From an uncultured Nitrososphaerota archaeon (GTDB lineage Archaea > Asgardarchaeota > Njordarchaeia > Njordarchaeales > Panguiarchaeaceae), in contig CAZWPQ010000034.1 in the NCBI GenBank assembly GCA_964636085.1, positions 1 to 21,990 of the forward strand: a stretch of 21,990 bases of DNA, written 5' to 3'. The translations under genes were made by a program, and so were the position numbers. Each line of letters opens with the position of its first letter. The stretch's first letter is position 1. Below the pieces are notes generated by a model. The model had not been told where the DNA came from and searched no databases. It saw only the letters and a program-made list of their open reading frames with translations. Positions 14,266 through 19,629 of the stretch are shown one piece after another.

Positions 14266-14368
14266 GCCGGGGTTGCCGAGCTGGTACGGCGTCGGCCTGC
14301 TAGACGAGCGGCCATTGTAGAAAGCCGATGGCGTTTTCGCCTCGCGGGTTCGAGTCCCGCCCCCGGCA
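14266..14368 (+). tRNA. tRNA-Ser(GCT) with 20-nt intron at 37/38 (14303-14322)
   Basis: Acceptor GCCGGGG/CCCCGGC; anticodon stem TCGGC/GCCGA; loop CT-GCT-A|A; long variable arm GGCG-TTTT-CGCC; T arm GCGGG-TTCGAGT-CCCGC; splice helix CTGC/GTAG with AAA bulge. Confidence 0.9.
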
Positions 14369-18960: not shown

Positions 18961-19068
18961 CTAAACCACCATGAAGCATACTCATTAAACGTTAGATAAT
19001 AAAAAAATATTAAAATTTTTTGATACTATAGAAATGGCAAAAAATGAGGTATCATGTAAAATTATACT

Positions 19069-19141
19069 GGGCCGGTGGCCTAGTGGCTATGGCGTCCCGC
19101 TTACGACGGGGAGGTCGGCGGTTCAAATCCGCCCCGGCCCA
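19069..19141 (+). tRNA. tRNA-Val(TAC)
   Basis: GGGCCGG/CCGGCCC; TCCCG-CT TAC GA-CGGGG; GGCGG-TTCAAAT-CCGCC. Confidence 0.95.
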
Positions 19142-19165
19142 CTTTTGCCTAGGTGTACAATACTT

Positions 19166-19239
19166 GCGCCGGTGGTCTAGAGGTAGGATGCCAGCCTCCC
19201 AAGCTGGTGACGCGGGTTCGAATCCCGCCCGGCGCACCA
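19166..19239 (+). tRNA. tRNA-Gly(CCC), CCA encoded
   Basis: GCGCCGG/CCGGCGC-A-CCA; CCAGC-CT CCC AA-GCTGG; GCGGG-TTCGAAT-CCCGC. Confidence 0.96.
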
Positions 19240-19286
19240 AAAACATATAGAAGTTCATTGGTTCATAATTTCCTATTGGCAAAATC

Positions 19287-19294
19287 TTTTTATA
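19287..19294 (+). promoter_or_regulatory. Candidate TATA box for the 5S precursor
   Basis: TTTTTATA with GGCAAAAT upstream; would start transcription near 19320, just before the processing stem. Confidence 0.5.
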
Positions 19295-19327
19295 GGCATT
19301 AGGATATAGTATTATTTTGGACATAGC

Positions 19328-19488
19328 AATGGCACGGGGGCCGAAAGCTAAGCCGCGCCACGCCGATCCGAGTAGTCTGGTGGGAGACCCCAGGCGAAAG
19401 GACGGTGCTGTCCGCCCTTTGGGGTGGACGGCCATAGGGCGCGGGCTACGCCCGAACCCATTCCGAACTCGGAAACTCCCGTGCCATT
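19328..19488 (+). rRNA. rrf: 5S rRNA gene, circularly permuted (3' part 19347-19413, linker hairpin, 5' part 19426-19474), within a processing stem
   Basis: 5' hallmarks GGACGGCCATAG...CCCGAACCCATTCCGAACTCGGAA lie downstream of 3' hallmarks GCTAAGCC...AGTA...TGGGAGACC...GCGAAA...GGTGCTGTCC; helices I-V all pair. Confidence 0.92.
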
Positions 19489-19491
19489 TTT
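19487..19491 (+). terminator. Oligo-T terminator candidate after the 5S precursor
   Basis: T5 run at the end of the terminal stem. Confidence 0.4.
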
Positions 19492-19629
19492 ATATCGTGA
19501 GGTTATGATTGTCTTTTTAGGGCGTCTCGCTTTTGTAAGAATATAACCCAGTGGAAATAGATGATATCTAATAGATGTTGATCTATCCTGTATGTTATCA
19601 ACTTAGCCTTTTTTAATAAAATCTTCGTC

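Follow-up and report, generated by a model that had tools for sequence, protein, structure and literature searches.

How does an archaeon make 5S ribosomal RNA (rRNA), a universal ribosome component whose gene is usually among the easiest to find, when the only 5S detected in its genome has its two halves in exchanged order? The question is raised by positions 19328-19488 of a 21,990-nt stretch of DNA (hereafter the window; contig CAZWPQ010000034.1 of assembly GCA_964636085.1, positions 1 to 21,990 of the forward strand). The host is an Asgard archaeon of heat vents that belongs to the Njordarchaeales, placed by NCBI in the kingdom Promethearchaeati (Asgard archaea). An earlier note, made from the sequence of the window, had proposed that this locus is a circularly permuted 5S gene with a built-in splicing motif. 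The layout is as described there, and those of its predictions that we were able to test were borne out. Our analysis indicates that it is almost certainly a functional permuted 5S gene, and the sole 5S detected in the organism. The most plausible overall explanation, which we consider probable, is that its transcript is spliced by the endonuclease EndA and by RtcB into a 128-nt ring, most likely built as such into the ribosome.

A 5S rRNA gene with exchanged halves

On the plus strand, the sequence at 19347-19413 reads as the 3' part of 5S rRNA and is placed ahead of the 5' part, at 19426-19474. The native termini, which lie in the middle of the locus, are joined by a short hairpin. The three elements are the following:

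19347-19413, plus strand: 3' part of 5S, Rfam positions ~52-119 (loop B, helix II 3' strand, helix V, loop E, helix IV, helix I 3' strand), supported by cmscan, nhmmer and covariation of helices II, IV, V and I
19414-19425, plus strand: hairpin GCCC-UUUG-GGGU, read from the sequence, extending helix I and joining the native 3' and 5' ends; its extension pairs covary
19426-19474, plus strand: 5' part of 5S, Rfam positions ~3-51 (helix I 5' strand, loop A (CAUA), helix II 5' strand, helix III with loop C, A50 and A51), supported by cmscan, nhmmer (HMM 3-50) and covariation

Searched at its gathering score (38 bits), the Rfam 5S model RF00001 gave no match at the locus, and only four tRNAs were matched by Rfam in the window. 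In E-value mode, the same model returned two part-matches, both below this cut-off: 19319-19416 (27.3 bits), in which model positions ~52-120 are truly aligned, and 19424-19517 (26.5 bits), in which model positions 1-51 are. A single colinear match at gathering score is thus not reached in genomic order, and the split matches themselves stand in permuted order, as the earlier note had predicted for linear 5S models. We then reordered the sequence as 19426-19474 followed by 19347-19413 and searched it with nhmmer, using a profile hidden Markov model (HMM) that represents 19 conventional 5S genes from the phylum of the host; the scores are therefore those of a profile and not of a covariance model. 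The reordered sequence gave a single full-length match (HMM 5-114, 38.2 bits, E 6e-12), as had been anticipated, whereas the genomic order gave split matches under the same HMM (HMM 3-50 at 23.5 bits and HMM 48-115 at 4.7 bits). Aligned with the conventional 5S of related archaea in the phylum, the reordered locus shows no gap at the junction. The failure of RF00001 at the locus is due to the permuted order and not to divergence.

The conserved loop motifs of 5S are all present (loop A CAUAG, loop C CCCAUUCCGAAC, loop E AGUA/GAA), and their columns are invariant or nearly so in the alignments. Helix I is formed by GCUGUCC (19407-13) paired with GGACGGC (19426-32) and is prolonged by the hairpin listed above, in the positions that had been proposed; the length of this extension ranges from 2 to 6 bp across the class. 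Since the back part of the molecule precedes the front part, the conventional 5S sequence can be obtained only by cutting and rejoining the transcript.

Support for the fold comes from two alignments. In the first, 17 sequences were aligned with MAFFT and scored on 53 pairs, namely the conventional 5S helices in permuted order plus the outer stem that encloses them: 90.8% were paired and 37 of the 53 pairs showed compensatory changes. None of 500 shuffles reached the observed values, and sliding the 3' partner by 1-3 columns left 36-52% paired. In the second, 20 distinct sequences of the Njordarchaeales class were fitted to a purpose-built covariance model with 47 pairs, which gave 98.9% of cells paired, a figure biased toward structure by the fitting, and compensatory changes in 31 of the 47 pairs (equalled by 0 of 500 shuffles; slid controls, 36-54%). 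Helices I, II, IV and V display many compensatory changes, supporting the three-way junction with helices I-V, and the fold z-score of the locus is -5.9. The near-invariant loops, together with compensatory changes in all helices, indicate that the gene is under purifying selection.

The host metagenome-assembled genome (MAG; 2.41 Mb in 102 contigs) was searched as a whole with RF00001, and in this 83% complete sequence no 5S signal other than the permuted locus was found. The class coincides with the order in the genome collection and comprises 14 genomes: none has a 5S above the Rfam cut-off, and the same split RF00001 matches occur in 12 of them. By blastn, the same colinear element was detected in the four remaining genomes of the genus and, within the order, in eight genomes from two further families, one of these eight matches being partial and at a contig end (the thirteenth genome; the full layout is present in 12 of 14). 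Among 241 million JGI metagenome records, a permuted-order pattern matched 14 contigs of up to 212 kb, and the same sequence in linear (ligated-junction) order matched none; as these contigs appear to be DNA assemblies, the latter result is a DNA control, uninformative on RNA. The checks called for in the earlier note, a search for another linear 5S and an inspection of relatives, thus returned the same gene order in independent assemblies and no second gene in the host, in the class or in five single-contig genomes of the phylum (see below).

Two kinds of candidates were set aside. Matches of a first pattern scan in Sanguibacter, Gammaproteobacteria, Chthoniobacter, Saccharibacteria and Nitrososphaeraceae proved to be conventional 5S genes adjoining 23S or in tandem, not permuted ones. 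The open reading frames lying over the locus (19052-19435, minus strand, 127 amino acids; 19317-19508, plus strand, 63 amino acids) were deemed spurious, as they traverse two tRNA genes and the covarying RNA.

A relaxed splicing motif with predicted cut sites

The exchanged halves are enclosed by flanks that form a motif of the bulge-helix-bulge (BHB) type, the substrate of the archaeal splicing endonuclease. Its 13-bp stem, its CCGA/UCGG helix and its two bulges had been reported in the earlier note and can be read directly in the sequence:

19328-19340, plus strand: leader strand of the outer helix, 13 bp with 19476-19488, supported by covariation
19341-19344, plus strand: H1 (CCGA), 5' strand of the central 4-bp helix, pairing with UCGG at 19469-72; a copy of the helix III 5' strand at 19452-55
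19345-19347, plus strand: 5' bulge AAG, with the predicted cut at 19346/19347; G19347 would be the first base of the excised RNA
19469-19472, plus strand: H2 (UCGG), serving in the precursor as 3' strand of the central BHB helix and, in the predicted mature RNA, as 3' strand of helix III
19473-19475, plus strand: 3' bulge AAA, with the predicted cut at 19474/19475; A19474 would be the last base of the excised RNA
19476-19488, plus strand: trailer strand of the outer helix, pairing with 19328-19340

By definition, a BHB has a helix of 4 bp with a 3-nt bulge on at least one side (PMC4731332), and here the central 4-bp helix CCGA/UCGG carries 3-nt bulges on opposite strands, each placed 3' of its helix strand. 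The outer helix (19328-40/19476-88) consists of 12 Watson-Crick pairs and one G.U pair (G19339.U19477). It is not conserved in sequence, but in the 17-sequence alignment all 13 of its pairs show compensatory changes, and in the 20 Njordarchaeales sequences 8 of the 8 modelled pairs covary and are 100% paired. On the inner side, only 2 bp are found (G19347-C19451 and C19348-G19450), and a 17-nt unpaired loop separates these inner pairs from H2. With such an inner helix and loop, the motif is best described as a relaxed BHB (bulge-helix-loop on one side), a type that heterotetrameric EndA is able to cut, the heterotetrameric endonucleases being those with the most relaxed recognition (PMC4731332).

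When the rule of cutting after the second base of each bulge is applied, a 128-nt RNA is released and its ends join ...CUCGGAA to GCUAAGCC... (in a longer form, ...CCGAACUCGGAA joined to GCUAAGCCGCG...). In each of the 26 Njordarchaeales loci available, from 12 genomes and 14 metagenome contigs, the outer stem runs without interruption for 10-16 bp, helix H has four or three of its four pairs, both bulges measure 3 nt, and the rule yields the product C(U/A)CGGAA|GCUAAGC. The two inner pairs would span the junction, as had been claimed, and C19348-G19450, which crosses the predicted ligation site, is CG in 12 and UA in 5 sequences of the 17-sequence alignment.

Because the bulges are A-rich, several symmetric pairs of cuts would give an identical product in the window, and natural variants are needed to fix the register. 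With the 5' bulge AGG of G002, any cut other than that after the second base would miss the conserved product, and the 3' bulge AAU of G008 rules out a cut after the third, if the junction is conserved. Under this assumption, only the cut after the second base restores the conserved junction in both genomes and the neighbouring registers are excluded, in line with the cuts at 19346/47 and 19474/75 predicted earlier. In other families of the phylum, the motif is shifted by 1 nt on both strands (CGUG-AAA / CACG-GAA) with an identical joined sequence. A second register with an unchanged product is hard to account for unless both the geometry and the product are selected.

Since the leader CCGA at 19341-44 duplicates that at 19452-55, UCGG at 19469-72 can pair with either strand and must swap partners from precursor to product. 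The two conformers, each drawn in full, have equal computed energies (-77.7 kcal/mol with the BHB and -77.9 kcal/mol with helix III). At one duplicated position the helix III pair covaries (UA in 11, AU in 9), and the leader base does not follow.

The window contains an internal point of comparison. The tRNA-Ser gene at 14266-14368 (anticodon GCU) bears a 20-nt intron at the canonical position 37/38, within a clean BHB (UCGGC-CUGC-UA|G ... GUAG-AA|A-GCCGA) cut after the second base of each bulge. In the intron and in the 5S locus alike, each strand runs from its helix-H strand directly into the 3-nt bulge. This tRNA gene was not reported by ARAGORN but was detected by Rfam.

Candidate processing enzymes and putative transcription unit

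Maturation by EndA and RtcB, as put forward in the earlier note, needs both enzymes, and the genome encodes two EndA paralogues and an RtcB. The two EndA-family (PF01974) genes lie at G000:C10:12357-12608 and G000:C1:165730-165990. Among solved structures, those closest to the 209-amino-acid product are catalytic subunits from the heterotetramers of Aeropyrum pernix and Pyrobaculum (3p1z_B, 3ajv_B, 2zyz_B), and the 188-amino-acid product is divergent, with matches that include the structural subunits NEQ261 and PAE0789. A catalytic and a structural paralogue would fit an alpha2beta2 splicing endonuclease, and these similarities suggest that such an enzyme exists in an Asgard archaeon. RtcB is encoded at G000:C18:11661-12959 (563.6 bits).

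Two further features flank the locus:

19287-19294, plus strand: TATA-like box UUUUUAUA, a putative promoter recognised from its sequence, ~34 nt upstream of the stem
19487-19491, plus strand: run of five T, a putative archaeal terminator that begins within the last two stem pairs

Related loci have an upstream TATA-like box as well, whose distance from the model start varies and is mostly 35-70 nt; in many of them, the stem is followed by a T-run. The 5S locus would therefore appear to be a separate short transcription unit. Just upstream, on the same strand, are the genes for tRNA-Val (UAC) and tRNA-Gly (CCC), at 19069-19239, and the gap of ~90 nt between tRNA-Gly and the 5S stem holds the TATA-like box.

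Proposed maturation and alternative readings

We propose the following pathway. The leader and trailer of a short transcript would fold into the 13-bp helix, continuing into CCGA/UCGG between the two 3-nt bulges; a two-subunit EndA of the alpha2beta2 type would cut at 19346/47 and 19474/75, and RtcB would join A19474 to G19347. UCGG would then move from the leader CCGA to the internal CCGA, forming helix III, and the product would be a 128-nt covalently closed RNA with a complete conventional 5S fold. We regard it as very likely that EndA and RtcB mature the RNA and that the new ends are ligated; that the ring is also the mature ribosomal form is a more guarded proposal, which we favour. Cleavage, ligation and the final ring form are deduced from the motif, the enzymes and the precedent of the signal recognition particle (SRP) RNA of Thermoproteus.

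Several observations weigh against this pathway. The strict hBHBh' arrangement is absent, the inner helix having only 2 bp and none abutting the 5' bulge, so that of the splicing motif originally claimed, the 4-bp helix, the bulges and the outer stem stand, in the relaxed form described above. Helix H has four of four pairs in the genus and three of four in family f3, where the fourth pair is a purine x A mismatch at one end. In the minimum-free-energy fold, the outer stem and helices I, IV and V are formed, but the canonical helices II and III and the BHB are missing; beyond showing that the two drawn conformers have equal energies, single-sequence folding is in our view uninformative on the choice between them. 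The bias of the model-fitted alignment, next to the lower MAFFT count, and the incompleteness of the host MAG, which leaves room for a second 5S gene, also have to be counted on this side.

The alternative that survives best, although we consider it unlikely, is that the ring is only an intermediate: a nuclease would open or remove the hairpin at 19414-19425, and the mature 5S would be linear with conventional ends. To our knowledge, no archaeal enzyme is known to cut such a helix I hairpin. Helix I of the Njordarchaeales does carry 2-6 extra bp and a loop, of variable length, which could be a disposable linker, but covariation is seen in the extension, which is closed by stable tetraloops (UUCG and GUAA, for instance), and a conserved processing signal was not observed. 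In most families of the phylum, moreover, UUCG closes a helix I of ordinary length without any extension, leaving nothing to remove. The model for this reading is the permuted tRNA gene, whose transcript is matured in this way (Soma et al. 2007, as cited in PMC4267664).

Still less likely, in our estimation, is that EndA cuts the precursor and the ends stay unjoined, giving a linear permuted 5S nicked between A19474 and G19347. Helix II and the pairs G19347-C19451 and C19348-G19450 would keep such ends in place, and linear permuted 5S rRNAs are known in brown-algal mitochondria (PMC4267664). RtcB, on the other hand, is present and acts on RNA ends of just the type that EndA leaves, 2',3'-cyclic phosphate and 5'-OH. 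Known EndA products (tRNA exons, introns, pre-rRNAs and SRP RNA) get ligated (PMC4731332, PMC12918454), and the open form of the Thermoproteus SRP RNA bound its proteins less well (PMC4731332).

That no splicing takes place at all, the leader/trailer stem being kept as the terminal helix of a linear permuted 5S with incidental bulges, seems improbable. Such a structural helix could well be long (10-16 bp) and fully covarying without being conserved in sequence, as this stem is. It would not account for the 4-bp helix and 3-nt bulges of all 26 loci, nor for the second register that keeps the same ligation product elsewhere in the phylum; pairing of UCGG with the leader would abolish helix III, which is conserved and covaries (UA 11, AU 9 at the pair mentioned above), and the layout equals that of the true intron BHB of tRNA-Ser in the same window. 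Finally, an assembly artefact or a decaying pseudogene, with the real 5S in the unassembled part of a MAG that is 83% complete in 102 contigs (and rRNA genes are frequently absent from MAGs), is already close to refuted, and we hold it highly improbable, given the same order in 12 genomes of different studies, 14 metagenome contigs and closed genomes of related families, the invariant loops A, C and E with compensatory changes in all helices, and the conventional 5S found in 0 of 14 class genomes.

Returning to the ring, the earlier note had suggested that it might aid thermostability. This idea is weakened by the finding of the same layout in many low-GC lineages of the phylum: with some permuted 5S genes of only 37-43% GC (0.37-0.43), heat stability is unlikely to be the general reason for the layout.

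Relation to known permuted and circular RNAs

The closest known system comes from Thermoproteus tenax and T. uzoniensis, whose SRP RNA has a permuted gene: a heterotetrameric EndA cleaves the transcript at a BHB, and the RNA is found in circular form (Plagens et al. 2015, eLife, PMC4731332). Both cases concern an essential structured RNA with swapped halves and without a conventional gene, a leader/trailer BHB at the new termini whose ligation restores a functionally important element, a TATA box with a short leader, and an organism with a heterotetrameric EndA of relaxed specificity (here predicted). They differ in that 5S is a ribosome component and in that its layout extends over a whole class and many families of a phylum instead of two species; moreover, the SRP RNA has experimental proof of its circular form and of its cleavage by EndA, both of which are deduced for the permuted 5S.

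Permuted tRNA genes likewise have the 3' half ahead of the 5' half and a BHB between the flanks, and pass through a circular intermediate made by the splicing machinery. In their case, RNase P and tRNase Z open the circle again at the linker that connects the native ends; in the 5S, a stable covarying hairpin without a recognisable processing site occupies this place. Circularly permuted tRNA genes are reportedly present in Thermofilum pendens, where they are said to have been found by Chan and co-workers in 2011. Those of Cyanidioschyzon merolae come from Soma et al. (2007), as cited in PMC4267664.

Circular rRNAs are themselves not new in archaea. A circular 23S is found in archaeal ribosomes, as published in 2026 (PMC12918454), and a permuted 23S occurs in Pyrococcus furiosus (PMC7758197). 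As proposed for our locus, the circular pre-16S and pre-23S rely on a BHB in a leader/trailer stem and on circularisation by RtcB, and the ring can be the ribosomal form. This processing is stated to apply to 16S and 23S, not to 5S (PMC12918454). The 16S and 23S genes are colinear, so that any permutation is post-transcriptional, whereas the 5S gene is itself permuted and ligation is needed to create the 5S sequence.

A permuted 5S is known from brown-algal mitochondria, where it is linear (Valach et al. 2014, PMC4267664; Rfam mtPerm-5S). It shares with the archaeal locus a helix I replaced by or closed as a hairpin, ends located elsewhere and a poor performance of the standard 5S model. The mitochondrial RNA has its ends at the alpha/gamma domain junction, is linear and involves no BHB or ligation; in the archaeal locus, the break separates helix III from loop B, in the beta domain, and falls within a BHB, which places the locus outside mtPerm-5S. 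Full-text literature searches retrieved no description of a permuted or circular archaeal 5S. The earlier statement that no permuted 5S gene had been described thus holds for archaea, and has to be amended for the different type of the brown-algal mitochondria. If our explanation is correct, this would be the first case of a 5S produced by the splicing machinery, and probably also of a circular 5S, and EndA and RtcB would be essential for ribosome assembly in these organisms.

Distribution across the phylum

To follow the permuted gene beyond the Njordarchaeales we used R1, a covariance model of the permuted form with 149 positions and 47 pairs. Full-length matches (~43-163 bits) were obtained in 83 of 151 sampled genomes of the phylum, from ~20 families. 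Families without such matches (f9, f13, f14 and f18) carry conventional 5S (RF00001, 49-85 bits), and the permuted and conventional forms are mutually exclusive among the sampled families. Loci L089-L126 (for example L091:1501-1647, minus strand) illustrate its presence across the phylum, beyond the Njordarchaeales. Six single-contig genomes of the phylum carry the permuted gene; five of them were searched again, leniently, with RF00001, which found no signal beyond the permuted loci.

The break point is constant to within 1 nt in the ~20 families, which suggests a single early origin in the phylum. Whether the mature 5S of the Njordarchaeales and of most other Asgard lineages is a closed ring, produced by the tRNA-splicing machinery from a permuted gene that arose once, is in our judgement evenly balanced. 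Were this the case, many of the archaea most closely related to eukaryotes would need EndA and RtcB to make their 5S, raising the question of which form of 5S was present in the archaeal ancestor of eukaryotes. The alternation of permuted and conventional 5S also offers a discrete and rare genomic character for Asgard phylogeny.

The permuted order explains the seemingly missing 5S of the Njordarchaeales and of over half of the sampled genomes of the phylum, closed ones included. Annotation pipelines are affected, and so are the quality scores of MAGs, in which 5S is counted; the annotation would be mended at once by a covariance model made for the purpose, such as R1. Several genomes with a 5S of the Njordarchaeales type have been deposited as 'Crenarchaeota archaeon', 'uncultured Nitrososphaerota archaeon' or 'uncultured archaeon', and the permuted 5S could be a simple marker to reassign such genomes.

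Some loci depart from the common layout. Three of them, in families f22 and f12 (L124 in G102, L120 in G031 and L121 in G041), have an insertion of ~30 nt in loop C of helix III; their predicted rings measure 149-150 nt against ~120 nt in relatives, and the insertion looks intron-like. One of the two copies in the single-contig genome G037 (L076:1531-1697) has a hairpin of ~30 nt inserted between the leader strand and H1. The 3' end of this hairpin (UUCCAGAAACUCGGGAAAG) resembles the helix III 3' strand plus loop B, and the hairpin may be a relic of a tandem duplication at the origin of the permuted gene.

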